Source: Macrostomum lignano
Taxonomy: Eukaryota
Length of the DNA stretch: 64,000 bases
Assembly (NCBI GenBank): GCA_002269645.1
Contig: NIVC01000530.1
Location: forward strand, 434,001 to 498,000
Reading direction: 5' to 3'
Shown here: positions 16,836 to 64,000 of the stretch, one piece after another
How positions within the stretch are numbered: the first letter of the stretch is position 1
Layout: each line of letters starts with the position of its first letter
Translations under genes and position numbers: made by a program
Notes under the pieces: generated by a model
The model's input: only the letters and a program-made list of their open reading frames with translations
The model's database searches: none
Told to the model about the DNA's origin: nothing

Positions 16836-17221
16836 ATCACAAATTCACGAATCTAATATACATTGTTTGCATTCATTCAGGCCAACTAAGTACAGAATGT
16901 AGTCGCTGGGCGGCCGTCAAATTGTAAACTGCGTGACATGTCATGTCCGGGCATGCCATGACGTATGCACTTGACAGCCCCGGTTTGATGAGAGCCATCG
17001 TTAGGGCAGTTGATATCTTTCAGCTTGCTTAAACATGCGCTGGTTGGACCTCCGCGCATTGCGGTTGTGTCCCAATCCAACTAGGGATTATCGGGGAACA
17101 GAGATTTAACTGTCCCACTAGCCAAACATTCCACTAGTAATGCATATACTTTGCATTTTTTTCAGATTGTTCCACAGCTTTGTTGATAATTGTTGCTCAT
17201 AGATGATGTGACGGATTTTGA

Positions 17222-32985: not shown

Positions 32986-33444
32986 TTATGTCTGCATCGG
33001 CTTTGCTTTGAGGGTTAAATACGGACATGAGTAAGCATTTTTATGAGCATAAAGATATCGATATTTTACAAGAAAGGAATGTTTTTATTGATGAATTCAA
33101 CTTTCAGAAAGCTGTGCGTAGTATTTGCAGCGCCATGCCACAAGTGCACAAAAAGGCGAGGTTCATGCACCTGGTGTTTAAATCAATTTTCCTAACTCAG
33201 GTAGCTTTTTCAAAAAGAGCTTTTTACCCAGGGAAAATTTATTGCCGCATTGATTAAAGCTCTTCCCAGTGACACCGCCCACGCAATGACATCAATTTTG
33301 TTGCTAAAGCAAACAGCTCCAGACCTCGTCGCTAAGTCCAAAATTACCAGCCTTTTGGATTTGGTTAATTTTTGCATAGAAATTTGATGATGAATAATAA
33401 TCAAAGAATGTGCGTATCTACCTACTGCTGATGACTATTTGAAC

Positions 33445-35205
<1,761 letters not shown>

Positions 35206-45600: not shown

Positions 45601-48600
45601 GTTAATTAACTATTGGCTTCATTTTGCATTTTTTACCGATTGAGTCTGCGTAGGAGGCAAATAGAAACGAACTTTTACGAATAGGGATCAATAGAATATG
45701 CATGCAGAGAGCTAGCTTAAGGGAGAACCAAAAAAATATAACCAGCATCTACTAGCTTGTAAGTGTGGATATTGTACCAGTATTGCAGCAATAAAGACTT
45801 ACGAAAAAAGATTTCAAATATTCACTCCCAGTTGCTTATGACACTCAGTTGCAGCCAGTAAACACTGTCAGCTTTTAACTGCTTGCCTTTTCTATGGTTG
45901 AGCACTCCTGGATGGAGCAGGAGAATGACCACTCATGGATGGAGAATGACCACTCATGGATGGAGAATGACCACTCATGGATGGAGAATGACCACTCATG
46001 GATGGAGAATGGCCACTCGTGGATGGAGGATGACCACTCGTGGATCGAGTATGACCACCCTTGGGTGGACCATGACGTCAGCAGCGAGTCAGCAGCCAGC
46101 AGCGAGTCGGCAGCCAGCAGCGAGTCGGCAGCCAGCAGCGAGTCAGCAGCCAGCAGCGAGTCAGCAGCCAGCAGCGAGTCAGCAGCCAGCAGCGAGTCAG
46201 CAGCCAGCAGCGAGTCAGCAGCCAACAGCGAGTCGGTGACTGATGCACACCAAGGTAAGTGCCTTTATTTATCCTTTTCAACTTACTTAAAAATTTTCTT
46301 ATCAATGCGATGTATATTATGCAGTCTAAAATTTTAGTCCAAAGAATGGGAGAAGGGGAGATAAAAGACTTTATACCGGTAGGGTTGTACATGTATGCTT
46401 GGGTACAGACGTTTAGTTTAGTATCTTTGATATTTGAAACTATAGGCAGCAAAAAACAAAAATATTATCCTAAAACCACAAACCAGGTTCAACAGTCAGC
46501 TTCAGCAGAGTTGCCCAAGCCTATGATCAATCACTGGAAATACTGAGGCTCAGATCGAGTCACCCAGACACGCTTCCGTCAGAATTTTTTGTCCAAGCTG
46601 GAGACAAAATTATTGAGGCAGTTCAGCAAAGAATTTCAAGACATCATTACAAAGTTCAGCTAAAGGTGAATATTCGAATGGTCCGAATAAGAGATGGGGA
46701 GATGCTTGCCGAAGAGGACAGATGGATAAGCTGTAAAATGCAGGCCCTAGACCTAGGTGGTGAAGCAGGCCGTTTAAACAACTGGTTGATTGAGCAGGAG
46801 CAGGAGTTGGAGAGGATCTGTAGTATGATTAATACGAACGGCAGTGGCTGGACAATTAAACAAATTAATTTTCTAGACATCAACCTTGCCAGGTACAATC
46901 CAATTCGATTTCGCCAGGGCAGAGCCGTTAGATTCAATCTTCCTGCCAGTTTGAAGAACAAAAAGGCTGTTATCAATCCACCGAGCACAGGCAAAGACTG
47001 TTTCCTGTACGCCTGTCTCGCTGCACTGCACAGCGCCGATCCGAAAGTTCAGAAATCGCCCAACAGAATATCCTCTTACGATGAATGGTTGCGTGAGCTG
47101 GACTTTGCAGAAATCTCCATGCCAGTGAGTGTCGCTGATATCGATCGCGTCGAGTCTAACAATCCAGGAATTTGCATTTCTGCGTTCTCTTGGCAGCAGG
47201 GCAGTGTGACTCTTCTCCGTCGCCGCAAGCATGAGTCAGATGACCGAAGACACCTCATGCTTTTGCTAGTTAAAGACAGCTACGGATCGGAGCACTGGTG
47301 TGCAATTACTAATTTTGACAGGTTAATGAACAGTCGTAATGGTCCCGCCATGAGGAAGTGGTGCACGAAATGTTTAACATCATTTTATAGCAACGAGAGG
47401 CTTCAAGAGCACAGGAACGAATGCAGCATTACTGCAGAAAATCCTGTCAAAGAAACGCTTCCAGTTCCAGGACAGAATGAAATAAAGTTCCGAAACTGTC
47501 AAAACACTGTCAGTCCACCATTCGTTGCCTATGCCGACCTGGAAGCCATTTTGCGAGCGAACACAGACCCTGCTAACCTGATCTCAAAGCATGAACCATG
47601 TGCAGCAGCTTTTCTTGCAGTGCCTCGTGAAGGCATGACAGGACCTCCGCTTAGGCCAGAAGGAGACATGTACAAGGTCTTTTGCAATGCGGACCCTGAT
47701 GAGTGTATCCTTGGTTTTCTCAAATCTCTTGAAAGCCTGGCTCAGGATATATTTCACTGGAACCAGAAGCATAGCCACCAGCCGGCTGACCGATCATCCG
47801 CGACCGTCATGGATGATTTCAATTCTGCTGAGGTATGTCACTACTGCAAGAAGAACTTTAAAAGTTCTACAGATAAACATTTTGACCACGATCATTTAAA
47901 TGGACAGTACAAAGGTGCAGCATGTCAAGAATGCAACCTGCGAGCACAGCTCCGACGCCGGTTTCTGCCCCTGGTTTTTCACAACTTAGGCGGCTACGAC
48001 CTTCATCTTCTACTTTCCACTGCGCTTGGGAGCATGAAAAATTGGAAACTTAGTGTTGTTCCGCAATCATCCGAGCGATACTTGTCACTAAGGGCGGAAT
48101 TCCCTGTTGCAAGTTACGTAAAGAACGGAAAAGTTGTGCCAATCATGTTTACAATTCAGTTCATCGACTCGCTCTGCTTTTTGAAGGGAAGTTTGTCCAA
48201 TTTGTTTGCTAATCTTCCCGAAGCTGAATGCAAGCTGACAATGCAAATGCTTGAGTCAAGACCACATCTTTCAAGAGAGCTACTTCGAAAAAAAGGGATT
48301 TTCCCATATGATTACCTCACAGGATTTGAGATTCTCGAGCAGTCGGTTTTGCCGCCTAAAGATGCTTTTTTTAATCGACTTTCCGATCGGGGAATTTCCG
48401 ACGACGACTACAATAGAGCAAGAGCGGCATGGGCGGCATTTCAATGCAAAAGTTTGAAGGATTATATGCTCGCCTATCTTGAAATGGATGTAAGGCAGCT
48501 GGCTGACATTTTCGAGACATTCCGACAGGCCAGTCTGAAAGAGGACGGATTGGATCCGGTACACTACTTTACTACTCCTGGTTTGTCTTACGACTCAGCT

Positions 48601-51600
48601 CTAAAGTCGACTGGAGTGGTTCTAGAGCAGCTGACTGATGCTGACATGTATCATCTGTTTGAGAAGGGAATACGAGGAGGCATGTCCTTCATTAATGTGC
48701 ATTGCGTCAAAGGTAATAATCCTAGCTTGCCAGGTTATGATGATCAGCAAGAGAGTGTAAGCCTCATGCGATCGATATGAACAACTTGTATGGCTTTGCC
48801 CTGTCGCTTCCGCTTCCATGCAGGGAATTCAGGTGGGTACCGGAACAGGAAATCCAGTTCTGGGACTCCAATCGGTTTCTGTCACTCAATCCAGAAGCCG
48901 AGATCGCCTACCTTGTTCAACTCGATCTAGAATACCCAGCTGAGATTCACGATTCGACTCAGGAGTTACCGTTTGCACCTGAAAAATCAAAACCACAGCC
49001 AGATCAATTCTCGCCGTACATGGCCGAACTATGGAAAGAGATTGCTGAACAGCGAACTGGCAATGCTGAAGCTAAGTTTCAAGCAACGGAGAAGCTTCTA
49101 CTCACCTGTACCGACAAGGATTCTTACGTAGTTCACAGCACCGTTTTAAGATTTTACCTGCAACACGGAATGCGGATCAAGTGCGTCAAAAAATGATTTC
49201 GTTCAAGCAGGAAAATATTTTCGCGCCGTACATTGCCAGCAACAATGAAAAAAGAGCTTTGGCAACTTCCGAGTTTGCTAAGGATTTTTACAAATTGAAA
49301 AACAATTCTCTCTTTGGAAAAACTATGGAGAACGTTCGAAAAAGATGCGATGTTCGAATTTGCACTAACCAGACTCAAGCAGAAACTTGCGCCTCTCGAC
49401 CAAACTGTGCCGCATTCTCGATTATCAATGAGTCGTTGAGCATTTTTCAGCTCAAAAAAGATAAAGTCACGCTTGACAAGGCCATTTTCGTTGGCCAGGC
49501 AGTTCTCGATCTCTCTAAGATGGCCATGTACAGCCTACTATATGACAGGCTCCGACCGCTGTTCTGTCATTCAGACGGTTCCAGAGACATGATGCTTTGC
49601 GGAGGTGATACTGACTCATTTTTTCTAGCTTTCAAGAATCATGATTTAACATCGGAGGTAATCCCGAAGCTTAGAGAGGAAAAAATACTTGACACATCCA
49701 ACTATTCTCGAGACCATCCGCATTTCTCTGAAGAGTTAAAAGGAAAGCTGGGCTGCGTTAAAGATGAATCTGCTGGTGGAATTTACCAGGAGTGGATTCT
49801 TTTGCGTCCAAAACTTTATTCGTTTCTCCCTGCCGAGAATTCGAGTGCAAAGATCAAGAAAACTGCCAAAGGCGTGAAGCAGTCAGTAGTAAGACAGCAA
49901 ATTTCGCATGCGAACTATGTCGACGCGTTCGAGTCCAAGCAAGAGCAGATGGTTGCCATGACAGCGATTGTTTCCAAGAAACACGAAATCTTCACGTCGG
50001 TCATGGAGAAAAGAAGCCTATCGGTGTGGGAGGATAAGCGAGTGTGGCTTAGCAGTAATCGAAGCCTGCCCTACGGACACTATGCGCTGACGCCCGCATC
50101 CCACGATCAGCTGAAGCGCATCCGACTGGTCTAGTGCGGGTGTTTAACAGACTGTTTAGTACTTTTTCTTGCTTTTAGAGTTGTTTAAATTGCCAAATTC
50201 TGTTTTAAATGTAGTGACTTGCATGTAGTAACTTTTACAAATTTGTATGCTTGGCTAATTGCGCTAGATTTAGCTGTCAATTTGTTTTTGCGGCGTGAAA
50301 TATTGATATCAATTTAAGTTTTACTTTTTATAAAGCTGTGTGGCAAGTGCGCTCATACAATATTAATTCATTTTTGTTTGCTTTGTGTACTACTTGTTTA
50401 AAATGTGTTTTTGGTTTTTATCTGACACAAATTGTTCCTGTAAATTCAATCAGCGTTTTAATCATATTTTCTCTATCACTTTTCTATTTCTCTTCTCTCG
50501 GTGCACATCGTTTGTTATAACGATGGTAGTATTGTTTACTTTCGGATTTGATATGCGTTTTGCGATACTTTTGGTGATGGGCTAAATACGTTTTTGAAGT
50601 GTTCCATAGCTGTCTGCCTGGGAAAATGAATGTAAAGAATACCAAGTTTATCCTTTTATTCACTTTTCACTAATCATTGAAATATTTGCGGCAAATTGCT
50701 TGACTTGACTTTATTTTTATTCAATGGAAAGAACTACATTGAGTAGACGCATGCTATCGGTATGCAACTGATTCAAGGACCGAGCTCCACTGAGAACAAA
50801 AGAGCCGCTGTGAAAAAGCAGACATTTACAAAAGTTTAAATTGAAAATTAAAGCAGAAAAGGATTCTGGTTCATATTCGGCGTTTGGGATAATTGATTTT
50901 AACATTAATAAGGAAAGTGCGGAATGAACTGGGAGCTGTCCATGAGCAGTAATAGTTTTAATTCGAACACAAATTGTTTGATGAGGCAGCAGTTGAGCCG
51001 GCACTCTCCGATGCAGCATAGCCACGAAGCGACGGGCAGCCCTTTTGGCGTCTGCGTGGGTCTTGGCACCGCAGATGCTCAGTTGCCCAGTAGGGTAGAG
51101 TAGGAGAGTCACTCTGGGAATCCGCATCCGCTTGATGAGCACCCGGGGCCAGACGGGCCGGTAGATCACATGAGCCATGCTGAGAGCCAGTTCCCGTAGA
51201 GGCAGCTGAGCGCCCCTGCCACCATCCAGTCTCAGATCTACTCCGCCAACCAGATTGGTCACTCTTAGGGCTGTAGCTGGTGGGCTCATTTCGATCGTCA
51301 ACTTCTTCACCAAATCTGCTTCTGCCAACTTTACTGCTCGTGTGCCACGGACACTGCTCGCTTCTTAAGTTGATGCAGAACTTTGGCTTAAGCCAACTGT
51401 AGTGCAGCAACGAATTTCTCACTGCACAGCCAGTATCTGAATCTTCAGTCGAGGGTGCTCCCAAATCTTCTAGGTTATAAACCTGTCTTCCAAGCAGCTC
51501 AGTCAGAAAAATCGACTTCCTTTCCCCATTTGACCAGATCGGACCACTGGCAATGCTCAGAATGTCTTCCGCCAGTTCCATGTACGGACGGGTTCCATCA

Positions 51601-54600
51601 TTCCACTTAAACTGGTGCAGACTCTTAGATAGCTGTCTGTAGTAAACTCGCATGTCAGGTGAGACTCTCTCCCATGGATACGGAGGTGCGTACACATGGT
51701 GAGCAATGTGGTAGCTCCCCGCTCTGATTTGAACAACTGCCAACTCCTTCACAACAAATTTTTTGCTTGTGCTGTTGCACGGGAATCCTTGGAAGTCAAT
51801 GTAGTTCATGATGCAGCTTTCCTTCGAAAATTTCGGAGTCAGTCCACCTTCTTATATACTTTTCTGGCAGGCAATTTCAGCCAGGCTGTGTTGCTCCCGT
51901 ACCCCTTGACTAGACTCTCCTGTTCTTTCTCCAGTTCACCCCTCTGCTGGTTGCCATTTTCTTCTTAACTGATTTACCAACAGCGGAAAGCGGAACATTA
52001 AGCTTTTTCTGCTGCAGAAAATCGATGAACTCGTTCCACCCAACTGGTTCACGCTCACATGGCGAATCCCTCACTGTGTGCTGAATCAAGTCCAGTATGT
52101 TTGAGGAAGGGATTGACGTGCCTGCGATTTCCACCTCCCCGTTTTCACAAACTCGAATCAGCTCTGGATTGGTGGACAGGATCGTCCACAGACTGCGAGC
52201 CCTGGTTTTGAATTTCTGTGGCACCGACTTGCTGATCTTCTCTTCCCAGGTGCTTATCTGGGGTGTCTCTGTTTTCATCAACTTGGCTTCAGTATTGCGT
52301 GCTCCTTCTTTTCCAGCGTGCTTGCGCTTGGCCAGCAAACTTTGCATTGCACTTTGGTACATGGCGGTTTTCACATCTTCTGGACAATCCTCGGCATACA
52401 AGATGTCATCGCATTTCTTCTGAGCCTGCTTCAAGTCAGCTTCAGTGGTAGTCTCATTTGGCTTCAAATTCTGCATCAACATCTCATACTCTGCTTTAGG
52501 AATCAGAACCATTTCTGAAAATTTGTTCATTTTGCTTCTTCTTCTTTACCAGCTTAAGCAGAATCGGGAGTATTTTGATGAAGCCAGCCTTCAACAAGTC
52601 TGTCTTTCTTCTTTTGTGAGTAATTTTTCGAATTATCTCTTTTGACTTTGCAAGAACAGCTTTTTCATCGAGCGAAAACGATAGATTGTTTTGTAAGAGA
52701 TTATGGCAGGCCTCGACAAGAAAATAACGCACTTCTTTTGGACAATTTTTTATCAACAGCCGCTTGAAGCGCACGGTATATTTAGGTGACGCAAGAACCG
52801 CAAAAAACTTGCATATGAATCAAGCACTTCCATTGCGATGAAAACAATAGCTGATAAAAACAAGCTTCACTTTCTTAAGCAAATACAAGATGGGGTCGCT
52901 GGTTGGGCAGAATTCTGGCCCGCACTCGCAGCTCATCGGGAGTTGATGGTGAAAGTCTAGGAACAGGTAGGCTCCCCTGCCCTGCGCGGTCACGTGCTTG
53001 AACACTGACAGCAGAAAGCCGGGCTTCTCTGTAAAGCACTGCCTGCCCAGTGCTGCAATCTGCAGCTGGTCTCGGGGTTTTTCAAGATAGCTAAGTACAT
53101 TACATTCAAGCTCATTGTTCGCGACTCTTTTCCCTTGAAAAATATATTCTGAGTCAGCATCACCAAAAAGCACGGCAAGTGATGTGCGATTCCTGTGAAA
53201 AAATTTCGCATTGAAGCAGAGTTTGAAGTTTCCTCTATTAAGTCATCGAAAACAACCAGGTCATTGGGCCTAAGTGCTGCCTCGATGTTGGTGGGAAATC
53301 CCTGGCGCAGCTGCACACCTAGGCTGTTCAGTTCTGCATGGCCTGCCTGTGAGATCCCATAGTACCACAGAACTCTGCCAGGCTTCACATCAAACATGAC
53401 GTCTCTGTACTGGATCAGGTGTTCGACAAAGGTTGTTTTTCCTGCATTGGTGGGCCCGCAGACAATCATGCAGCTTCCCTGCCTGAGGCGGATATCGTAG
53501 CAAACTTGCTTTTCTCCCATGTTTAATGCATAAATATTAGAAATCACGGACATCTTTTTCTTAAGTTGGCTTCAAACCTCTGTAAGATTCTATCATTCAA
53601 ATGATTTTTCATTAGCATGCAAATGCTTCAAAATCCCCTCAAATGACCGATTGAACAGAAACTTTTGATAAGCAAAATAGATGCAAAACATTCCGCATTT
53701 ATTAGAGTTAGCACATTGAACTCTGTTTATATTGCTTCGGAGCCAAAAGCCAGTTGTTTTAATCTCTCGAAACAAATTATAAACCAAAGATAAAATTTCA
53801 GGTTCCCAGCCGAGGGAGTTGAACAACTCAATGCGATTTCCTTGCCCAACATAGCACACCACCCAGTGACCAAATGAGCCATTGTGCTGAAGTAGGACAA
53901 AAACAAACTTGTTTTCAAAGGAAATTGATGATCTAAATTTTCTTTTTACATTCAAGGGCAGAGAATTTTTATAGCGCAAATGTAAAGTAACTATGAGAAA
54001 TTTTTGGTAAGGCAAAAATTTTCTGGCGAGATTAAGTAGTTGAATTGCATCCATGTCAATTAAGAGGAATAGTCCAGCAAAAGCTCTCGTGCTTGGTGAC
54101 CTCAATCAGCGAGTCATACAGGCACATAGCAATCAGGGACACCGCTTCATTCAGAGCCTGTTGGAAGCGAATCTCCAGCCGCAGGTTGCCCTCCTTCTGT
54201 CCGTACCACAGAGCCGCTCCCTCGGGTGTGAGATCGAATGCAAACACCGTGGTGTTGTTGGAGAAGAGCTGGTAGGGGATCCACGGACCGAGTTTGTGTG
54301 GCTTGCAGATTGACAGCTTTTCAGGTAGTGCAAGTATTCTCTTACAAGGAATTGTTTTCAGGTGTGAAGGCGCCGTGGCACACGGTTTCCCCACCTTTCT
54401 TTAGAGCCAATCGGCTAAGGTTGAAGCTCTGGAACTGGAACGGGCTCGCGTGATGATGACCGTTGAATGCTCGGTGGCTCACGAAGGCCAGCATGATGAA
54501 CTTCGGCAATTTTCCATGAGTGAATCCTTCAATGTTTTTGACTGAATACCCTGGGTAGGATGAAGTTCTGCATTTCAGTTCGCTCGATGGGATACAGTGC

Positions 54601-57600
54601 ATTTTGGTTTGTCAGCCCCTGCTCATGGGCCAGGCTGATGTGGGGCATCACTTTGACTCGGCGAAGATGCAGAATGCTGTGAGAGATTTCCATTCGGTAT
54701 GCCGCGTTGTTTGCATTCGGGGTTCTGATGGCAAAGGCCCCATCGCTGGGGACCAGTTTGATGTGCAGGTGCAGATTGCTTAGCAGAAACACTGGGCACT
54801 GGAAAACATCGCTGAAGAGCGGCCCCGCATACTCCATCCATTGGGATTCCCTGTGGCTCTCCGTGTGCTCTTCAGCTGCCGAGTTCGGCTCCAGGAAGCC
54901 AGCAGGGTAAAGTTTTAGTTGCTGGGCATCGGATGAGCTCATTAGTGCTTTGAAGTACGCATGGTAGGGATAGAGCTGGTCTCCACCAGACACCACTCGC
55001 TGGTTAATGCTCACATTACATCTGAGAAGGCTGTAGACAGAACAAAATTTTCTGGGTGCACGTCACTGTCTCTGCGCTCGGTGATGATGCCATCTCCATC
55101 TCGAACATCCTCCTCAGCAAACCCCCATCCAGTCTCACAAGGCGGCAGCGAATATAAAGAAAAGAATTAAGCAGATCTGTATTCATCGGCAGATTGTGGC
55201 AGTCAAATTCAATGGGAGAGTTTGCAACAATGGAATTAACTGGGTGAATATCAACATAAGTAGCTTTTTCAATGCAGGTTTGTAGAACGGGCGTCTTAAA
55301 TAAATCAAGTCTGGGATTGAATCCGTAAGCCATGTCTATGACAGAGAGTCGAGCACGCGTTTCACAGTTTTCTTTGCTGACTTTTGCTTTCGCTTTCCTC
55401 CGCCTGCTCTATTCTTCTTTGCTTTCGTCTTCCTATTCTTAAGCTTTTTCCCACTAGCCTTGCTCGACCTCTTACTGCGATTTCCACCAGTTGCCTTTCG
55501 GGTGCCCTTCTTTTCTTCAATCGTTTCGGACTTGCTTCAGTATTTCTTTTGCGCCTGACGTTGCTAAGCGTCGAGGCTGATGATGATGATATAGCCGCTG
55601 GCGGAGGCTGGTATGTCATGATCCCTGGGAAGCTCCCACAGCCATAGAGTGCAGGCTTTTCGTGTCCTGTCCTCACCCCGAATATTGCTGGATTAGCTGC
55701 TGGTAGTTCATTGAATGCGTTTCTCCTGAATTTGAACTGTAAGCAGAACAGGGCTGTGAGTCTGTGCAATCAGTGGGCAACCATAGATGTCCGCAGCTGA
55801 ACTCGAATGCTGTGAAGAAGACTGATTCGTTGAATCGGGAAGAATATTGTTTTCTTAAATATTTTTGTTTGATAGTTGCCCCATTCAATGCCAGCTTTCA
55901 TTCCAACTGTTCTCAACAAGGAGCTCCAGTTGCAATTAGTTGACTCAACGATACTGCAGTGCACATTGATTAAGCTGGTGCGCGGGCAGCCAATGCAATG
56001 CTCGGATACGCGGCTCCCTGGCTGGATTTTCACAGCCTGGTTTCCAAATCCCAGCCAATGCAGAATTTTACTAGATGGAAGAAACAGCTCTGCTCTCGCA
56101 GTGTTGTTGTGCACCACAGTTCGTGAGTTGCGGATTTCGAACTTCATACCAAATTCCCTGTTGCCACTACGCCCCATCAGGCCGGACTCATCAGCCTCCA
56201 TCTCAGACTCCCTGTCACTCATTGCATCAAAGAACAGCGAATCAGAGTTGGCCAGCAGCTCATTCAGGCGCCACCAGCTCCTCCACTCTAGCAAAGCGTC
56301 CGGGTTGAAGAACCAGGGCCTCATGCTCTCTTCCATCTGAGACAGTGAAGCAGTAAGGCTCGTCAACATTGAACCATGCAGCAGGCAGATGGATTTCAGC
56401 CAGACCTGCCTCATAGTCCACATTTCGATCCAAGTAAATAGGTGAAGGCAGGTAAAAATTAAAGTCACTAGGAGTACCTTCAGCATGCTCACTGTTAATC
56501 AAAATAGTTCGCATTATAATCATAAACTACATGATGAGGGCTGTGCCAAAGCTAAACCTTTCTTAAGTCTTTTCATCCACCCAGCCAGTCGAGTCGTAGC
56601 CCGCCCATTTCACCAGATAGCGAATTTTTCCCTTCCGCTTCTCCGTTTTCAGGATCTTCTCAATCACATACAGCCGCTGTGAGTCCGGGACAGCCTGCAG
56701 CTCGTGCTCATGGAAGAGTCCTCGAATCTCTTGCCCCCGCATGTCTTTAATCTTGTACATGTAGGGATAATGTTTTGGGGCTCTGCTCACCACGGTGTAC
56801 ACTTCCTCACTCCAGCTCGCTTTGTATCCCTTTTTGAATATCCGTGGAGCATTGGAAATTCTCACTGACTGGTTTTCAGCGAACTTAGGCTTCTTTAATT
56901 TTTCTAGAGTCTCGACTGCTTTTCCATCGTACAGGTTCATCCACACTTCAGATTCATTCTCTTTGCAGACACTAGTGGGTGCCATTTTGATGCTTCTGTG
57001 GTAGGTATTGTTGTAGGATTTTACCAGCTTAGGCAGCACATCAAGCCAGTGCAGTGTGCTCTTGTAGGTGAAGTAGCGCCACATTCTACTTTTCAGAGTT
57101 CGATTCCATCGCTCAATGACAGCTGCCTTCTGCTCGCTGTTAGTTGGGAAAGCCAGAATCCCTCTGTCAATGCAGTATTGACGGAAAGTGGAGTTGATAA
57201 ATTCCTTCCCCTGATCTGTGCGAACTGTGCGTGGCTGGCGCTTTGAACTTCTCAGTATGCTCTCGAATGCTGACTTCACTTCTGCAGCAGATTTTTTTTC
57301 AGTGCCTTGGCCCAAGCACATTTTGAGAGCACGTCAATGCATGTGGAATATATTTGTAGCCTTTATTATGCTTTGCGAATGGAATCATTTCCACTAAGTC
57401 AAGTTCCCACTGATCATCGATTGCGCGCACTATGATTGGGGCCCTTGGATATCGCCTCCTAGCTGGCTTGTGCAGAGTGTGCACTGGCTGCTCGCTGAGC
57501 CACTGCTCAATGCTCTTTGCAGATATTCGATCACCTCTTTGCCTCACTTCATGCAGCAACTTTGAGGCACAAGAAAAACTAGCCGGTTGCTCAGGTTTCA

Positions 57601-60155
57601 AATAAATTTTCTCCATCATGGTTTATCAAGATACGTGCCTATCCACCTGCTCTAGCTGTACAGTATTTTTTCTTAAGTAGAAATTTATATTCCAATTAAA
57701 TGATAGAGAAACGAGTGGCAAATTAATTTATTACTGTCAGATTGAAACCTCTAACATCGTAACAGTCGGTGTATTTTCCGAAAGCAAACAATCCATAAAA
57801 ACGAACACTAAAACACTCGCACACCAGCATTTCAGAAATAGCAGAGATAAAAAACAGCATAGTGCCGTCAGGCTGGATAATCATGTGCAAGCTAAAAGTA
57901 ATTTAGTTAGTCCAATGCATTCAAAGCATTCTAGCTGTTCAGTTATCAAAGCGAACATTGGGCTGCAGCCTCATCGCGTCCTGCCGACGAAGTTGAAATG
58001 GCAGCTTTCGCTTCTGCTGCTGCTGCTCACCGTCGAAGCCGCTGCATGCGCCCTGAACTGATACCACACCGGATCTTCCTCAAGGTTGGTGTCCCGCTGC
58101 GGAAGCAGTCCAGCATCAGAATCAACCGAAGGTATCGGTGTGGATGTGATTGGCTCAGTCACAATGCGCGGCCTTGTGGGCGAGCTAACGTCCTCGTCAT
58201 CAGCATGATCTCCGCCCTCATCAGTCTCCATTATGGGCTTCGTGTCCTGGTCAGCCTCCAACTTGAGCTTCTTGTCCTCTTCCTCCTCTTCCTCATCAGA
58301 CTCCAGCTCGTACTGCATTGTGTTCCTCAAGGGAGCCACCAGCTGACCGTCGATCCAGGAGGCGATTTTCCAGAGCTTCTGCCACAGCGGCGGAGTCAGT
58401 GGTACGGCGTTTCGTCTCAAAAACTCCTCGCAGCAATCTTCCGGCAGCCGTTTGAGCCAAATGATGCCGCCTTTGACTTCCACAAACTTATCGAAGCCGA
58501 GTTTCACGACCTTGGGCTCGTTGTTGCGTGCAGAAATCACAAGTGAGCGTTTCACCTCCTTCAATTTCTTCCATTGGTGAACATTCAGGTTGAATCCTGG
58601 GACGCCTGGCTTCAGACTTGCCGTGCTGCCGTGTCGGTAAAATTTGCGAATAGCGATAAATTTTTGTCCTTCAAACTCCTGGACTTGTGCCTTATAGCCT
58701 TCACAGATGTCCATTTTCCTTTCGCAATTGAAAACTCACAAAAGTTAAAAGCTGAGGAAAATTTCGGATGAAATTTTGGATTTGAAAATTGAGAATTCTT
58801 TCTTGTCAATTTCGGGGCTTATATACCCTCGACCGAACCACCCCAAACCACCCATCCCACTCCGGGCTCTGTGATTGGCTCTTTCGCAAACATTATTTCC
58901 ATAGATTACACATATCTCTGCATTAATGCATACTCTTATCTCTGCAGTGTTAACCACCCCCAATGCAAAGAGATAGGCCGCCTCTCCTCCTATCTCTGCA
59001 GTGTTAACCACCCCCAATGCAAAGAGATAGGCCGCCTCTCCTCCTATCTCTGCAGTGTTAACCACCCCCAATGCAAAGAGATAGGCCGCCTCTCCTCCTA
59101 TCTCTGCAGTGTTAACCATCTCCAGTGTAAAGAAATAGGCCGCCTCTTCTCCTATCACTCCTGTGTTAAGCAGAGATAGAGCTCATATCTCTGCAGTGCT
59201 TAGCCGTCCCAATGCACAGAGATAGAGCTCATATCTCTGCAGTGCTTAGCCGTCCCCAATGCACAGAGATAGAGCTCATATCTCTGCAGTGCTTAGCCGT
59301 CCCCAATGCACAGAGATAGAGCTCATATCTCTGCAGTGCTTAGCCGTCCCCAATGCACAGAGATAGAGCTCATATCTCTGCAGTGCTTAGCCGTCCCCAA
59401 TGCACAGAGATAGGGCTCATATCTCCGCAGTGTATTTTTCCCTATACATTTGCATTGCCGCCTATCTCGCCAGTGCTAGTGCGGCAGTATCATAATTCGC
59501 CCTACTACTACTCAAGCTCATTATCCTCACTGTTCAGCCTCAAAAGGATCGCTTACTGCTGTGAGCAATCATAGAATAAGTGGATATGCAAATCCCTGCG
59601 CTACCCGGTCGCTCTTTAGACTCGCTGGTGAATCGACATATCTGAGAATCTTCGATAGTCGACCAGAGCCGGAACTGGCTGCGCCATTGTTCAACGGCTA
59701 CGCCGGAAGTGCACAGCACCAGGCATCGCTTACGCACAGTGCAAGCGGCCGTAACGCCTACTAAAGTTTACCAGCTCCGCATGGCAGCACAATGACACCG
59801 CTGCGAGCTCTGCCATTGCCGAACATCTTATGCAACGATCTCTCCTGATACGGCCGCAGTGTAGTTAGCGGCTTCAAATCTATAGACAGATTCGGATTCT
59901 TCGTATCCTGACGGAAGTCGTACGGCCATCAGAGGATAATCCAGTTCAGTGCAGCGCTTCTGCAGCACTTCAATCATGCTCTGTTGCACTTCTAGAGATA
60001 CTCGGCTGGCCGATGCGGCCAAGTCCTCCGCGGTGGCGTCCTCTCGTCCAGCCGATCGTATAGGTCAAGGATGTCGCTAGAGTGTCGGTTGTCGATGCGG
60101 CGGCGGCGGCTGAGTCAGCCTGCTGTTCAGCCGCTGCGGCTGGCACAGTGCGGCC
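39601..60155 (-). CDS. ERCC3: TFIIH helicase/translocase XPB; 3' exons present, one intron holds the Polinton
   Basis: Exon ~59531-60155 has [25 protein letters not shown] and [14 protein letters not shown], with several 1-bp indels. Exon 41100-41879 has [23 protein letters not shown] and [13 protein letters not shown]. Exon 39601-39936 runs from GYAFKV to HPLFRKFKR-stop. 5' exons not resolved near the gap. Confidence 0.93.
39970..41080. repeat. ~34-bp minisatellite in last XPB intron
   Basis: (CAACAAATCGTCACTAATAGATGGAATTCCCCCT)n. Confidence 0.93.
41970..42800. repeat. ~29-bp minisatellite carrying CCGGAAGT in XPB intron
   Basis: (AACCGGAAGTGGATTATTAGCTGTTTATT)n. Confidence 0.88.
42835..42840 (+). 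other. Left target-site duplication CAAGCT (right copy 59513-59518)
   Basis: The same hexamer directly abuts both element ends; 6-bp TSDs are typical of Polinton integrases. Confidence 0.95.
42841..43180 (+). repeat. Left TIR including six 47-bp units
   Basis: AGTAGTAGGGCGAATTATGATACTGCCG... is the reverse complement of 59171-59512. Unit GCACTGCAGAGATATGAGCTCTATCTCTGTGCATTGGGGACGGCTAA. Confidence 0.95.
43554..43561 (+). promoter_or_regulatory. Candidate TATA box (TATATAAG) of left-end ORF
   Basis: 109 nt upstream of ATG 43663; the same octamer precedes the PC4-like and exonuclease genes. Confidence 0.6.
43663..45009 (+). CDS. Polinton left-end ORF of unknown function (Cys/His-rich N-terminus, basic patch, EAAGV and APAAL repeats)
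   Basis: Uninterrupted 448-aa ATG ORF with unique N- and C-terminal sequence; internal repeats of 15 and 18 bp keep the frame; preceded by a TATA box. Confidence 0.7.
   Translation: MKTFKSCHRDLYEVCISCEVCLLGGVSPRHHENENCLVSCWLACDQCGTVEALQEGKIPAYHRGHKIVSDDKKKQESNRWKVIRAIKKSNEREKKSQQKKGASRSLLSAHLSQVIDSTLKRMRPSGSSAAAEFEVELSAGVEAAGVEAAGVEAAGVEAAGVEAAGVEAAGVEAAGVEAAGVEAAGVEAAAVINFIEEDVLDQFLREFNAGQQQQQQQPVSSVPVIAGKQLHLIEDDHEMEILEEEGSDNESHNAIVPPAAPAAPAALAAPAALAAPAALAAPAALAAPAALAAPAAPAAPAALAAPAAPAAPAALAAPAALAAPAALSAPAALSAPAALAAPAALAAPAALAAPAALAAPAALAAPAAPAAPAALAAPAAPAAPAALAAPAALAAPAAPAAPAAASTIPASQSETPPVPAGVAFFLPPVGGAGYEVTIFENRIRIVPL
45894..50134 (+). CDS. Protein-primed family B DNA polymerase (pPolB), split by apparent frameshifts; probable 5' exon 45894-46254
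   Basis: Terminal-protein-like region with GSGW; DCFLY and EHW (vOTU-like Cys/His); exonuclease motifs [13 protein letters not shown] and YLEMDV; EndoVII-like CHYC..DHDH..CQECN; polymerase motifs [18 protein letters not shown] and GGDTDS. Frame changes near 48775 and 49190. The reading frame is open from 46474. Confidence 0.95.
50717..51289 (-). CDS. Divergent TATA-binding-protein (TBP)-like protein, ~190 aa
   Basis: Two TBP half-repeats. Repeat 1: [64 protein letters not shown]. Repeat 2: [30 protein letters not shown]. These align by eye with TBP QNIVSTVNL / [34 protein letters not shown] / YEPELFPGLIY..LLIFVSGKVVLTGAK. Confidence 0.88.
   Translation of the reverse strand: MSPPATALRVTNLVGGVDLRLDGGRGAQLPLRELALSMAHVIYRPVWPRVLIKRMRIPRVTLLLYPTGQLSICGAKTHADAKRAARRFVAMLHRRVPAQLLPHQTICVRIKTITAHGQLPVHSALSLLMLKSIIPNAEYEPESFSALIFNLNFCKCLLFHSGSFVLSGARSLNQLHTDSMRLLNVVLSIE
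50958..51809 (-). CDS. DEDD/DnaQ-like exonuclease-family protein (recognisable domain ~51390-51809)
   Basis: YIDFQGF..FVVKELA..H..YAPPYPW..KWNDG..Y..G.RK..V.NLEDLG.P..CA..N..W resembles the small nuclease-fold proteins of Polintons and insect DNA viruses. The 3' part of the ORF overlaps the TBP-like gene in another frame. Confidence 0.6.
   Translation of the reverse strand: MNYIDFQGFPCNSTSKKFVVKELAVVQIRAGSYHIAHHVYAPPYPWERVSPDMRVYYRQLSKSLHQFKWNDGTRPYMELAEDILSIASGPIWSNGERKSIFLTELLGRQVYNLEDLGAPSTEDSDTGCAVRNSLLHYSWLKPKFCINLRSEQCPWHTSSKVGRSRFGEEVDDRNEPTSYSPKSDQSGWRSRSETGWWQGRSAASTGTGSQHGSCDLPARLAPGAHQADADSQSDSPTLPYWATEHLRCQDPRRRQKGCPSLRGYAASESAGSTAASSNNLCSN
51851..51858 (-). promoter_or_regulatory. 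Candidate TATA box (TATATAAG) upstream of the exonuclease/TBP-like cassette
   Basis: Plus strand reads CTTATATA; 49 nt upstream of ATG 51809. Confidence 0.5.
51910..52530 (-). CDS. Conserved uncharacterised Polinton protein (PW/PZ-type)
   Basis: Intact 206-aa ORF; the [32 protein letters not shown] pattern resembles a conserved Polinton core gene. Assignment to a named family is uncertain. Confidence 0.65.
   Translation of the reverse strand: MNKFSEMVLIPKAEYEMLMQNLKPNETTTEADLKQAQKKCDDILYAEDCPEDVKTAMYQSAMQSLLAKRKHAGKEGARNTEAKLMKTETPQISTWEEKISKSVPQKFKTRARSLWTILSTNPELIRVCENGEVEIAGTSIPSSNILDLIQHTVRDSPCEREPVGWNEFIDFLQQKKLNVPLSAVGKSVKKKMATSRGVNWRKNRRV
52496..52774 (-). CDS. Small basic Polinton protein, probable structural accessory (true start may be ATG 52814 via a frameshift)
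   Basis: [38 protein letters not shown] pattern and position between the ATPase and the PW/PZ-type gene. Confidence 0.5.
   Translation of the reverse strand: MRFKRLLIKNCPKEVRYFLVEACHNLLQNNLSFSLDEKAVLAKSKEIIRKITHKRRKTDLLKAGFIKILPILLKLVKKKKQNEQIFRNGSDS
52875..53520 (-). CDS. A32/FtsK-like genome packaging ATPase (two apparent frameshifts)
   Basis: Walker A GPTNAGKT, Walker B LVVFDDL, then HH..LTQNIF, RTMSLN and YL.ILKNP, continuing in another frame as [18 protein letters not shown]. Confidence 0.92.
53593..54054 (-). CDS. Adenain/Ulp1-like maturation cysteine protease
   Basis: GHWV (His), FNSLG, RVQ (oxyanion Gln) and CGMFC (Cys) in the canonical order; lies between MCP and ATPase. Confidence 0.88.
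   Translation of the reverse strand: MDAIQLLNLARKFLPYQKFLIVTLHLRYKNSLPLNVKRKFRSSISFENKFVFVLLQHNGSFGHWVVCYVGQGNRIELFNSLGWEPEILSLVYNLFREIKTTGFWLRSNINRVQCANSNKCGMFCIYFAYQKFLFNRSFEGILKHLHANEKSFE
54060..55333 (-). CDS. Major capsid protein (double jelly-roll, PY-type), broken by about five apparent 1-bp deletions
   Basis: LDLF.TP..QT.IE..YV..P..PIEF, DL..S.LY, INQRVVS..YPY.AY, LP.FIMLAFV..AFNG and L.LEIRF..AL are found in successive frames. Confidence 0.88.
55362..55711 (-). CDS. Small Arg/Lys-rich putative core (DNA-condensing) protein, one apparent frameshift
   Basis: ATG at 55711 overlaps the inferred mCP stop (ATGA). Reads [12 protein letters not shown], then LYGCGSFPG and a basic tract [24 protein letters not shown]. 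The 350-nt span becomes whole codons if one base is restored. Confidence 0.55.
55708..56523 (-). CDS. Minor capsid protein (penton, single jelly-roll), two apparent frameshifts
   Basis: F.FYLP.PI.L..YE.GL.EI.LP..W.N at the N-terminus; [21 protein letters not shown] near the C-terminus. Confidence 0.8.
56563..57619 (-). CDS. Retroviral-like (RVE/DDE) integrase with C-terminal chromodomain, two apparent 1-bp deletions
   Basis: [52 protein letters not shown]; chromodomain [15 protein letters not shown]. Confidence 0.95.
57971..58714 (-). CDS. PC4/Sub1-like ssDNA-binding protein with a second degenerate PC4 repeat and acidic tail
   Basis: [37 protein letters not shown] matches PC4 VRDFKGKVLIDIREYW..KPGRKGISLNPEQWSQLKE. 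Intact 247-aa ORF. Confidence 0.85.
   Translation of the reverse strand: MDICEGYKAQVQEFEGQKFIAIRKFYRHGSTASLKPGVPGFNLNVHQWKKLKEVKRSLVISARNNEPKVVKLGFDKFVEVKGGIIWLKRLPEDCCEEFLRRNAVPLTPPLWQKLWKIASWIDGQLVAPLRNTMQYELESDEEEEEEDKKLKLEADQDTKPIMETDEGGDHADDEDVSSPTRPRIVTEPITSTPIPSVDSDAGLLPQRDTNLEEDPVWYQFRAHAAASTVSSSSRSESCHFNFVGRTR
58818..58825 (-). promoter_or_regulatory. Candidate TATA box (TATATAAG) of the PC4-like gene
   Basis: 111 nt upstream of ATG 58714; CCAAT-like element on the minus strand at ~58871-58880. Confidence 0.6.
58937..59150. repeat. Right subterminal 54-bp tandem repeat (~4 copies), related to the TIR unit
   Basis: TATCTCTGCAG recurs at 58937, 58991, 59045 and 59099, and shares the CAATGCA.AGAGATAG motif with the 47-bp unit. 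Confidence 0.85.
59171..59512 (-). repeat. Right TIR including six 47-bp units
   Basis: Near-identical inverted copy of the left TIR; differs by one extra terminal AGT and a 1-bp indel. Confidence 0.95.
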
Positions 60156-60659: not shown

Positions 60660-61184
60660 NNNNNNNNNNNNNNNNNNNNNNNNNNNNNNNNNNNNNNNNN
60701 NNNNNNNNNNNNNNNNNNNNNNNNNNNNNNNNNNNNNNNNNNNNNNNNNNNNNNNNNNNNNNNNNNNNNNNNNNNNNNNNNNNNNNNNNNNNNNNNNNNN
60801 NNNNNNNNNNNNNNNNNNNNNNNNNNNNNNNNNNNNNNNNNNNNNNNNNNNNNNNNNNNNNNNNNNNNNNNNNNNNNNNNNNNNNNNNNNNNNNNNNNNN
60901 NNNNNNNNNNNNNNNNNNNNNNNNNNNNNNNNNNNNNNNNNNNNNNNNNNNNNNNNNNNNNNNNNNNNNNNNNNNNNNNNNNNNNNNNNNNNNNNNNNNN
61001 NNNNNNNNNNNNNNNNNNNNNNNNNNNNNNNNNNNNNNNNNNNNNNNNNNNNNNNNNNNNNNNNNNNNNNNNNNNNNNNNNNNNNNNNNNNNNNNNNNNN
61101 NNNNNNNNNNNNNNNNNNNNNNNNNNNNNNNNNNNNNNNNNNNNNNNNNNNNNNNNNNNNNNNNNNNNNNNNNNNNNNNNNNNN
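60660..61184. other. Assembly gap (N run)
   Basis: Direct reading of the sequence. Confidence 0.99.
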
Positions 61185-64000
61185 TCATTCTCAAACAAGC
61201 AGGTCATCATTCTCAAACAAGCGGGTCATCATTTCAAACAAGCAGGTCATCATTCTCAAACAAGCAGGTCATCATTCTCAAACAAGCAGGTCATCATTCT
61301 CAAGCAAGCGGGTCATCATTCTCAAACAAGCAGGTCATCATTCTTAAACAAGCGGGTCATCATTCTCAAACAAGCAGCAGGTCATCATTCTCAAACAAGC
61401 AGGTCATAATTCTCAAACAAGCAGGTCATCATTCTCAAACAAGCAGGTCATCATTCTCAAACAAGCAGGTCATCATTCTCAAACAAGCAGGTCATCATTC
61501 TCAAACAAGCAGGTCATCATTCTCAAACAAGCAGGTCATCATTCTCAAACAAGCAGGTCATCATTCTCAAGCAAGCGGGTCATCATTCTTAAACAAGGGT
61601 CATCATTCTTTAACAAGCAGGTCATCGTTCTAAACAAGGGTCATCATTCTTAAACAAGCGGGTCATCATTCTTAAACAAGCGGGTCATCATTCTTAACAA
61701 GCAGGTCATCATTCTCAACAAGCAGGTCATCATTCTCAAACAAGCAGGTCATCGTTCTCAAACAAGCGGGTCATCATTTAAACAAGCGGTCATCATTCTC
61801 AAACAAGCAGGCCATCATTCTCAAACAAGCAGGTCACCATTCTCAAACAAGCAGGTCATCATTCTCAAACAAGCAGGCCATCATTCTTAAACAAGCAGGT
61901 CATCATTCTCAAACAAGCAGGTCATCATTCTCAAACAAGCAGGTCATCATTCTCAAACAAGCAGGTCATCATTCTCAAACAAGCAGGCCATCATTCTCAA
62001 ACAAGCAGGTCATCATTCTCAAACAAGCAGGTCATCATTCTCAAACAAGCAGGTCATCATTCTCAAACAAGCAGGCCATCATTCTTAAACAAGCAGGTCA
62101 TCATTCTCAAACAAGCAGGCCATCATTCTTAAACAAGCGGGTCATCATTCTCAAACAAGCAGGTCATCATTCTCAAACAAGCAGGCCATCATTCTTAAAC
62201 AAGCGGGTCATCATTCTCAAACAAGCGGGTCATCATTCTCAAACAAGCAGGTCATCATTCTCAAGCAAGCAGGCCATTATTCTCAAACAAGCAGGTCATC
62301 ATTCTTAAACAAGCAGGCCATCATTCTCAAACAAGCAGGTCATCATTCTCAACAAGCGGGTCATCATTCTAAACAAGCAGGTCATCATTCTCAAACAACA
62401 GGTCATCATTCTCAAACAAGCAGCAGGTCATCATTCTCAAACAAGCAGGTCATCATTCTCAAACAAGCGGGTCATCATTCTCAAACAAGCAGGTCATCGT
62501 TCTTAAACAAGCGGGTCATCATTCTTAAACAAGCGGGTCATCATTCTTTAACAAGCAGGTCATCATTCTCAAGCAAGCGGGTCATCATTCTTTAACAAGC
62601 AGTTCATCGTTCTCAAACAAGCGGGTCATCATTCTCAAACAAGCAGGTCATCATTCTCAAACAAGCAGGTCATCGTTCTTAAACAAGCGGGTAATCATTC
62701 TTAAACAAGCGGGTCATCATTCTTTAACAAGCAGGTCATCATTCTCAAGCAAGCGGGTCATCATTCTTTAACAAGCAGTTCATCGTTCTCAAACAAGCGG
62801 GTCATCATTCTTTAACAAGCAGGTCATCATTCTCAAACAAGCGGGTCATCATTCTCAAACAAGCAGGTCATCATTCTCAAACAAGCAGGTCATCATTCTC
62901 AAACAAGCAGGCCATCATTCTCAAGCAAGCGGGTCATCATTCTTAAACAAGCGGGTCATCATTCTTTAACAAGCAGGTCATCGTTCTTAAACAAGCGGGT
63001 CATCATTCTTAAACAAGCGGTCATCATTCTCAAACAAGCAGCCATCATTCTTAACAAGCAGCAGGTCATCATTCTCAAACAAGCAGGTCATCATTCTCAA
63101 ACAAGCAGGTCATCATTCTCAAACAAGCAGGTCATCATTCTCAAACAAGCAGCGGGTCATCATTCTCAAACAAGCAGGTCATCATTCTCAAACAAGCAGG
63201 TCATCATTCTCAAACAAGCAGGTCATCATTCTCAAACAAGCAGCGGGTCATCATTCTCAAACAAGCAGGCCATCATTCTTAAACAAGCAGGTCATCATTC
63301 TCAAACAAGCAGGTCATCATTCTTAAACAAGCAGGTCATCATTCTCAAACAAGCAGCAGGTCATCATTCTCAAACAAGCAGGTCATCATTCTCAAACAAG
63401 CAGGTCATCATTCTCAAACAAGCAGGTCATCATTCTCAAACAAGCAGGCCATCATTCTTAAACAAGCGGGTCATCATTCTCAAAAAAGCAGGTCATCATT
63501 CTCAAACAAGCAGGCCATCATTCTCAAACAAGCAGGCCATCATTCTCAAACAAGCGGGTCATCATTCTCAAACAAGCGGGTCATCATTCTTAAAAGCAGG
63601 TCATCATTCTCAAACAAGCAGGTCATCATTCTCAACAAGCAGGCCATCATTCTCAAACAAGCAGGCCATCATTCTAAACAAGCGGGTCATCATTCTCAAA
63701 CAAGCGGGTCATCATTCTTTAACAAGCAGGTCATCATTCTCAACAAGCGGGTCATCATTCTTTAACAAGCAGGTCATCATTCTCAAACAAGCAGGTCATC
63801 ATTCTCAAACAAGCGGGTCATCATTCTCAACAAGCGGGTCATCATTCTTAAACAAGCGGGTCATCATTCTCAAACAACACGTCATCATTCTTAAACAAGC
63901 GGGTCATCATTCTTAAACAAGCGGGTCATCATTCTTAAACAAGCAGGTCATCATTCTTAAACAAGCGGTCATCATTCTTAAACAAGCGGGTCATCATTAT
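61185..64000. repeat. 22-bp satellite array running off the window end
   Basis: (TTCTCAAACAAGCAGGTCATCA)n. Confidence 0.97.

Follow-up and report, generated by a model that had tools for sequence, protein, structure and literature searches.

A TBP-like protein and a second class of promoter-like box in a Polinton of the flatworm Macrostomum lignano

Beta- and gamma-herpesviruses code for a mimic of TBP (the TATA-binding protein), called ORF24 in KSHV (Kaposi's sarcoma-associated herpesvirus), BcRF1 in Epstein-Barr virus (EBV), and UL87 in human cytomegalovirus (HCMV), which works on TATT promoters within a six-protein complex (PMC12529657; this and the other PMC articles are cited here for portions of their content). 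For elements of the Polinton kind, the legend of Fig. 5 in Starrett et al. (2021, PMC8502044) names a 'TBP' gene in some midsize eukaryotic linear dsDNA (MELD) element, and a map row of Supplementary Fig. S2 in the same paper shows MAEL and MOSUB (PC4/Sub1-like) genes adjoining the inverted terminal repeat. At issue is what turns on the capsid genes of integrated Polintons, with or without the aid of a helper virus. Here we analyze a 64,000-nucleotide stretch of Macrostomum lignano DNA (contig NIVC01000530.1, positions 434,001 to 498,000 of the forward strand; "the window", to whose first letter coordinates refer), which contains a 16.7-kb Polinton/Maverick (adintovirus-like) element at 42841–59512 that encodes a TBP-like protein and belongs to a family that we call F1.

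We think it fairly probable that the TBP of this element reads late promoters with the host's Pol II (RNA polymerase II), acting as a single protein in a two-class transcription programme. An initial annotation of the window had instead proposed that the element encodes an initiation module of its own, made up jointly of the TBP-like protein and a PC4-like protein and acting on promoters that share TATATAAG. As we discuss below, the expectation of a viral-style TBP with an early/late split and possible autoregulation is supported at the level of sequence, by a second box that precedes the virion-module and TBP genes.

Two classes of box in front of Polinton genes

The three TATATAAG boxes noted initially, at 43554–61 (+), 51851–58 (−), and 58818–25 (−), are enriched inside the element (3 seen versus 0.2 expected; 1 of 300 shuffles), and their frequency over the whole window is unremarkable (4 seen versus 1.9 expected; 11 of 100 shuffles). 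Two of them are canonical-type TATA boxes that we assign, provisionally, to an early class. The box at 43554–43561 (+) lies 109 nt before the left-end open reading frame (ORF), and the homologous ORF is preceded by a TATA-type box in all four other copies. The box at 58818–58825 (−) lies 111 nt before the ATG of the PC4-like gene, for which a canonical-type TATA box was found in 11 of 11 copies read. The middle box is of another kind. It forms part of a composite, TATATAAGAA (51849–51858, −), that combines TATATAAG at 51851–58 with a TAAGAA core, and it sits 49 nt before the ATG of a MAEL-like ORF (at 51809) and ~570 nt before the TBP ATG. Nor is its sequence fixed, as it reads TATTTAAGAA in five and TATAAAAG in one of the 15 copies shown. 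Thus, the proposal that one TATATAAG box heads all three units stood for the left-end and PC4-like genes and failed for TBP, which has a different box, CTTAAGAA.

Against an expectation of 0.8, the element contains six copies of this late-class box (0 of 300 shuffles), every one of them on the coding strand; they precede the genes for TBP (by 80 nt), a core-like ORF, the packaging ATPase, the major capsid protein (110 nt), the minor capsid protein (44 nt), and integrase (58 nt). The copy before TBP, at 51362–51369 (−), falls within the MAEL-like coding frame and is present in 15 of 15 copies shown. Together with TTTAAGAA before a small basic ORF and TATAAGAA within the middle box before the MAEL-like ORF, these sites make up a YWTAAGAA class of eight members, all on the coding strand. 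TAAGAA also ranked first among 6-mers in an unbiased count, where 7 of 12 genes had it upstream (P 1e-7, uncorrected for the 1044 k-mers); CTTAAG alone was barely enriched in the element (20 of 300 shuffles). The last gene is followed by AATAAA and no box. Two further CTTAAG sites, one before a 206-aa ORF and a second one before TBP, were considered as boxes and rejected, as neither is conserved.

Comparisons among copies provide the strongest evidence for the second class, namely conservation of the box amid drifting flanks. Genome searches, each limited to the 150 candidates with the highest scores, gave 152 matches for the TBP-like protein and 150 for the PC4-like one; these split into F1, with TBPs mostly 73–100% identical, and a second family, F2, with 38% identity. 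In comparisons with subfamilies at 76–77% DNA identity (16–17% of 8-mers identical), five of the six fully alignable boxes were unchanged and the sixth had become TTTAAGAA, which still fits the motif, while control CTTAAG sites had decayed in both of two cases. The integrase box was retained in 10 of 12 copies despite flanks that could not be aligned.

The box recurs in F2, which has a different gene order. There, a single box (CATAAGAA, CTTAAGAA, or TATAAGAA) is found before each of the integrase, minor capsid, basic, major capsid, core-like, and MAEL-like genes, and the ATPase gene has CATAAGAG. In the F2 copy C2485 none of the seven YWTAAGAR sites lies off the coding strand and each belongs to a different gene, and the F2 capsid box is at 107 nt, versus 110 nt in F1. 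Another TBP-like lineage, very divergent from the first, is found in a third family, F3, and its relatives (72 genome matches). It was identified by profile (E 8e-5) and by atlas TBP clusters (0.95), with no Pfam match and a weak hhalign score of 19%. In F3 and in C362, which has this other TBP lineage, TATAAGC/T stands ahead of packaging and capsid-module genes; TATAAG precedes 6 of 13 genes, two of these being of early type. Members of this lineage (L112:1243–1857 in G000:C2285; also C1704, C4619, L149, and L150–L151) adjoin deoxynucleoside kinase and pPolB (protein-primed DNA polymerase B) genes, with dUTPase, and their frame lacks a Met where the first repeat begins. In a fourth family, F4, we found no match to TBP or PC4 and the box before 0 of 14 genes, which begin with an A-rich TAAAATG. 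In a TBP-less Polinton family at L108–L110 (G000:C506) and L137–L139 (C2506), TATAAAATG or AAAAAATG abuts the start codon. The poxvirus late TAAATG resembles this start context, and the family at G000:C506 and C2506 may depend on a helper virus.

The element TBP and a proposed reading of the boxes

The TBP-like ORF (190 aa; 50717–51289, −) consists of a two-lobed saddle only and, judged from profile and model, is a true TBP homologue, as the initial annotation had it. It matches Pfam TBP (PF00352) in two stretches at E 1.2e-24, its best match in the Protein Data Bank is Sulfolobus TBP (E 2e-18), and its AlphaFold model (pLDDT 90.9) has the two-repeat saddle, with a TM score of 0.84 to Sulfolobus TBP. 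Ratios of nonsynonymous to synonymous divergence (dN/dS) of 0.20–0.37 in six pairs, with the 3′ half near saturation, indicate that the protein is under purifying selection. Among F1 subfamilies the second repeat (residues 112–185) is far more divergent than the first (dN 0.19–0.45 versus 0.01–0.08, with dS saturated), a contrast that suggests module exchange or a dual-coding constraint on the first half. Recent capture from host TBP or TRF2 is not supported, as the element TBP is only 25–29% identical to either and branches outside both in trees, whose deep nodes are weakly supported. Its nearest neighbors in those trees are short TBPs from other sequence collections. Seven proteins of 169–189 aa (P0039, P0040, P0080, P0083, P0090, P0114, and P0144) group beside the Polinton TBPs, most of them sharing a Thr-for-Asn change in the second repeat, and are candidate TBPs of other Polintons. 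Viral contigs yielded no relatives in context, and 32 metagenome loci held no Polinton genes beyond two weak ATPase matches.

Residue positions below follow what we take to be yeast numbering. The element TBP keeps Glu186, Glu188, Phe190, and Phe207 and carries the changes N159T, V161T, P191S, V203K, F116Y, V122S, and T124C; across the F1/F2 clade these are N159T, V161T, P191S/N, V203K, F116Y, V122S/T, and T124C. The two glutamates, present in 8 of 8 F1/F2-clade rows shown, form in sequence the acidic stirrup that binds TFIIB, and contact with host TFIIB is predicted from their conservation. Recognition of the 5′ half of a TATA box falls to the C-terminal TBP lobe, Pro191 is believed to exclude every base except T at TATA position 1, and residue 203 helps to set position 2; at position 6, wild-type TBP did not select G, yet a cavity can take G there (PMC1636458). 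F1 and F2, in which boxes often begin with C, have lost Pro191; the F3 lineage retains it and has TATAAG boxes with an initial T.

In the mechanism that we favor, host TBP would read the canonical TATATAAG-type boxes and so provide early proteins, namely the left-end ORF, the PC4-like single-stranded DNA (ssDNA)-binding protein, and, in F2, pPolB. The element TBP would bind the non-canonical YWTAAGAA box, which host TBP should read poorly because of the C at position 1 and the G at position 6, would recruit host TFIIB and Pol II to a site ~25–32 nt downstream, and would thereby turn on the integrase, capsid, core, and packaging genes. In F1, with the TBP gene behind the same box, positive feedback would follow. 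Consistent with a TATA-like geometry, the first long ORF begins at least 30 nt past the box in 52 of 56 cases.

The MAEL-like (Maelstrom/DEDD-like) ORF may add a further control. This ORF (283 aa; 50958–51809, −), for which a Maelstrom cluster (0.88) is a lead only, shares 332 nt with the TBP ORF, in a different frame, through its C-terminal 110 codons. Its frame was open over the TBP ORF (329–389 nt) in 17 of 17 loci parsed, with 3 of 20 loci unparsed, and the overlap also occurs in F2 (e.g. L022:4713–5101). Synonymous choices that would create a stop are avoided in the overlap (0 of 12–15 sites in four of five loci and 1 of 15 in the fifth), data that amount to about two independent observations. 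Being open across the TBP start, the MAEL-like frame may stop translation of TBP from an upstream mRNA, and the overlap is a candidate translational gate or, alternatively, a real C-terminal tail. A MAEL-TBP fusion protein, as in database model P0008, was rejected; in each of the 15 copies shown the TBP ORF comes with an ATG and a box that belong to it, and the longer frames begin at varying places, so we treat the fusions as copy-specific frameshifts.

More tentatively, and with slightly less than even confidence, we suggest that animal Polintons carry orthogonal TBP-promoter pairs that co-evolve by lineage (CTTAAGAA in F1, CATAAGAA or TATAAGAA in F2, and TATAAGC in F3), in which the residue at the Pro191 position would set the first base, one protein would switch host Pol II to the virion genes without a helper virus or further viral factors, and the MAEL-like ORF would gate the on/off loop.

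Several observations weigh against a late class read by the element TBP. First, the copies compared are related and not independent, the negative control is a single distant, AT-rich family (F4), and the k-mer P-value for F2 is inflated because four starts were set near boxes and the ATPase box is counted again under the protease. Second, coverage by the box is incomplete: 4 of 12 copies have CCTAAGAA as their capsid box, the protease and 206-aa ORFs lack a conserved box in F1, and the protease lacks one in F2 as well. Third, autoregulation is not general, as the TBP gene of F2 stands behind a canonical TATAAAAG in place of a late-class box and that of F3 is situated within the replication block. 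Fourth, in-frame ATGs lie only 12–19 nt from the box in 4 of 56 cases, and counts of upstream ATGs (14 over 1330 nt, against 9 over 1415 nt) point neither way on a TATA geometry. Finally, only two of the four intercalating phenylalanines are kept as Phe (Phe190 and Phe207), Phe116 being Tyr and the Phe99 region Trp/Pro; the fit between Pro191 and box position 1 is a hint only, because it rests on two lineages; and boxes of F2 and F3 that begin TATAAG could be read by host TBP, given the cavity for G at position 6 (PMC1636458).

The last point belongs to an alternative in which host TBP or TFIID reads the boxes as weak TATA variants, and the element TBP has another role, for example in soaking up TFIIB or host inhibitors (Mot1, NC2, TAF1) or in repressing host genes. 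Such a role would fit the many F2 and F3 boxes that begin TATAAG with an accommodated G (PMC1636458), the heavily altered DNA face of the element TBP, with Trp/Pro at one Phe position, and the retained glutamates, which a decoy for TFIIB would need. It fits poorly with F1 boxes that are mostly CTTAAGAA and with the presence of CATAAGAA in F2, both of which Pro191 should exclude, with the absence of the box from the TBP-less family F4, and with the clade-wide conservation of the altered residues themselves, and we consider it unlikely.

Baculovirus late promoters, (A/G/T)TAAG, are used by a viral RNA polymerase that starts inside TAAG. That the Polinton box is a late initiator of this type, serving the RNA polymerase of a helper virus or some other factor, seems to us distinctly improbable. 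ATAAG or TTAAG lies within nearly every box, the element encodes no RNA polymerase, and 4 of 56 in-frame ATGs lie 12–19 nt away. The distances from box to start nevertheless drop sharply at 30–35 nt, out-of-frame ATGs are tolerated at +7 to +26, and the box follows the TBP-bearing families; moreover, we know of no helper virus of this kind in flatworms, although no search aimed at one was made.

The PC4-like protein and the rest of the element

The PC4-like ORF (247 aa; 57971–58714, −) has two PC4-type repeats in one chain (residues 1–126) and an acidic tail, and a Pfam PC4 match at E 5.3e-8 bears out its initial naming. Its model (pLDDT 84.6) is closest to Pur-alpha (Z 10.5, root-mean-square deviation (rmsd) 3.9, 117 residues aligned), superimposes on human PC4 with an rmsd of 1.0 over 64 residues, and has the ssDNA-binding fold in predicted structure; the best viral match of that fold is the MOSUB protein of a lancelet adintovirus. 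The fold begins at residue 7 and the coactivator domain is absent, as there is no N-terminal Lys-rich domain of the kind that host PC4 possesses. This domain is essential for coactivation by PC4 in vitro, the C-terminal domain can also mediate coactivation (PMC2592824), and the PC4 homologue of phage T5 is a replication factor (PMC7549692). The dN/dS estimates for the PC4-like gene come from three pairs, in two of which dS is saturated.

Of 16 F1 loci, 11 have both TBP and the PC4-like protein, and the remaining five end or break before the PC4 end is reached; in F2, where the gene order is different, 7 of 7 loci have both. This co-occurrence, which the initial annotation had named as a point to check, breaks down elsewhere: TBP-bearing F3 gave no PC4 match, and short pPolB elements without capsid, integrase, or TBP matches carry an adjoining PC4-like gene (L117–L119 in G000:C173; L120–L122 in C558). 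In F2, the same TATA box TATATAAT, borne on the terminal inverted repeat, heads both the PC4-like gene and pPolB at opposite ends (e.g. L067:5694 and L022:6479). Because the coactivator domain is missing and the protein occurs without TBP, we regard it as more likely to be a replication ssDNA-binding protein than a partner of TBP; it would serve replication by pPolB rather than initiation. A joint TBP-PC4 module is accordingly very unlikely in our estimate: the co-occurrence in F1 and F2 and a C-terminal domain that can coactivate (PMC2592824) speak for it, and it is opposed by the missing domain, the different box classes in front of the two genes, the PC4-like genes without TBP beside pPolB, the F3 TBPs without PC4 match, and a published map row for a lancelet adintovirus that has a PC4-like gene and lists no TBP (PMC8502044).

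Many pPolB matches of the genome belong to the short PC4-like-bearing type. CACCC/CCCACTCCG boxes, presumably akin to Sp/KLF sites, stand in either orientation just upstream of the PC4 TATA box, at 58838–58864 in the window and in several subfamilies.

Least probable of all is an RNA-processing signal (branch point, trans-splice, or 3′-end) in a polycistronic transcript, which could draw on spliced-leader trans-splicing in this host, on head-to-tail packing that makes the start of one gene the end of the previous one, and on the T-rich tract and AG after some boxes, and which is opposed by the last gene, ending with AATAAA and no box, by the lack of a following pyrimidine tract at most boxes, and by a motif that changes with TBP lineage inside one host.

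The element has the ends and gene set of a Polinton. It starts AGTAGTAG, finishes CTACTACT, and is bounded by terminal inverted repeats with AGT-repeat ends (42840–43142, +, 303 nt, 100% complementary to 59208–59510, −) and a 6-bp target duplication, CAAGCT, at 42835–40 and 59513–18. A Pfam scan recovered pPolB, retroviral integrase, adenain protease, and packaging ATPase, with the pPolB, rve, and ATPase matches below cut-offs and several genes split over frames in the window copy; the scan of ORFs gave no RNA polymerase. Many indels of the window copy are absent from contigs of four public runs and are therefore copy-specific or assembly errors. Contigs from those runs, three of which we guess to be RNA, touch all 30 bins, with no joints in those three; starts, strand, and level are unreadable in them, and we draw no inference from them.

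From the left, the first ORF (448 aa; 43663–45009, +) has N-terminal CxxC pairs followed by low-complexity repeats and no Pfam family above cut-off; its position upstream of PolB is like that of adintovirus 'Oncoid' genes. The pPolB gene (46474–50134, +) spans three overlapping frames in the window copy (DNA_pol_B_2 E 4e-4, below cut-off; Endonuclease_7 E 7e-6). Beyond the TBP and MAEL-like ORFs, the conserved 206-aa ORF (51910–52530, −) has no assigned function, and the CTTAAG upstream of it drifts between copies. A small basic ORF (52496–52879, −), which we take to be core-protein-like, is broken near its start and has its CTTAAGAA box at 52872–79. The FtsK/A32-like P-loop packaging ATPase (52820–53565, −; box CTTAAGAA at 53558–65) lies in two frames and has weak P-loop matches only; a Pox_A32 search across the genome gave no match. 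The adenain-like cysteine protease (53593–54054, −) matches Peptidase_C5 at E 1e-4. The putative major capsid gene (54056–55443, −; several frames; box CTTAAGAA at 55436–43, 110 nt before the ATG) is preceded by the small basic ORF (55362–55859, −; box TTTAAGAA at 55852–59) and the putative minor capsid (penton) gene (55770–56567, −; two frames; box CTTAAGAA at 56560–67). We presume both capsid identities from position; the Pfam scan gave no match for a double or single jelly-roll capsid protein. The retroviral-type integrase with chromodomain (56563–57677, −; two frames; box CTTAAGAA at 57670–77) matches rve at E 2e-6 and Chromo at E 1e-5.

Outside the element, another 448-aa ORF lies at 12459–13805 (+), long tandem-repeat arrays with 29-nt, 8/12-nt, ~30-nt, and ~22-nt units lie on its flanks at 17078–19600, 33304–35000, 42000–42800, and 61187–64000, and an assembly N gap on its right side spans 60660–61185.

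Comparison with known systems

The element resembles adintoviruses and MELD elements in gene set and ends, and its TBP and PC4-like labels have precedent in published maps (Starrett et al., 2021, PMC8502044). In that paper 'promoter' is absent from the main text, and the parts covered hold no TBP role, box, or Macrostomum element. A term search found no mention of TBP or PC4 in PMC11161782, PMC10748475, or 10.64898/2026.10.13.758929, and in the literature covered, which leaves out figures and subscription papers, we could find neither a late box described for Polintons nor a function for a Polinton TBP. The gene labels are not new; what we could not find in print is the box, together with the way in which it is conserved and pairs with TBP residues. 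With a defined box for most virion-module genes, an element-encoded TBP, and a host amenable to RNA interference, the proposal is directly testable.

With cellular TBP and TRF proteins and the TBP-like proteins of nucleocytoplasmic large DNA viruses (NCLDVs) and mirusviruses, the element TBP shares the two-repeat saddle, the YEPE-x-F stirrup, and structural matches to cellular and giant-virus TBPs; it differs from cellular TBP and TRF in its low identity to host TBP/TRF2 and its position outside both in trees. NCLDV TBPs mostly act with a viral RNA polymerase. The PC4-like protein has the fold and signature common to human PC4, its phage T5 homologue, and type I tandem folds such as Pur-alpha and Whirly (PMC7549692, PMC2592824) and departs from that group in its two repeats per chain, its acidic tail, and its lack of an N-terminal regulatory domain. 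The likeness to baculovirus late promoters lies in a TAAG core before structural genes, present save for the CCTAAGAA capsid boxes, and the difference in a spacing that looks TATA-like in the Polinton.

The likeness to beta- and gamma-herpesviruses is one of logic. Neither system has its own RNA polymerase, and in both a TBP-like protein and a non-canonical box would drive structural genes through host Pol II while early genes have ordinary promoters, a parallel that on the Polinton side we infer (PMC12529657). The parts differ. ORF24 is a large mimic that makes direct contact with Pol II and has no TFIIB glutamates (PMC12529657), whereas the Polinton TBP is a bare 190-aa saddle that keeps them and does not have the N-terminal Pol II-binding and C-terminal DNA-binding domains of the herpesvirus factor. 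The boxes are also distinct, TATTWAA in herpesvirus late promoters versus YWTAAGAA in the Polinton, where TATTTAAGAA is confined to a single subfamily and, there, to the MAEL-like box. None of the five further herpesvirus-like activators was recognized by Pfam among the 22 ORFs, several of which have no family. By this comparison, the Polinton system is not a member of the herpesvirus late pre-initiation complex kind, though it would work alike. If our reading is correct, the element TBP would be an altered-specificity TBP that arose in nature and could help to explain how DNA is read by TBP, and Polintons would have arrived independently at a simpler solution to late-gene expression than the six-protein herpesvirus complex.

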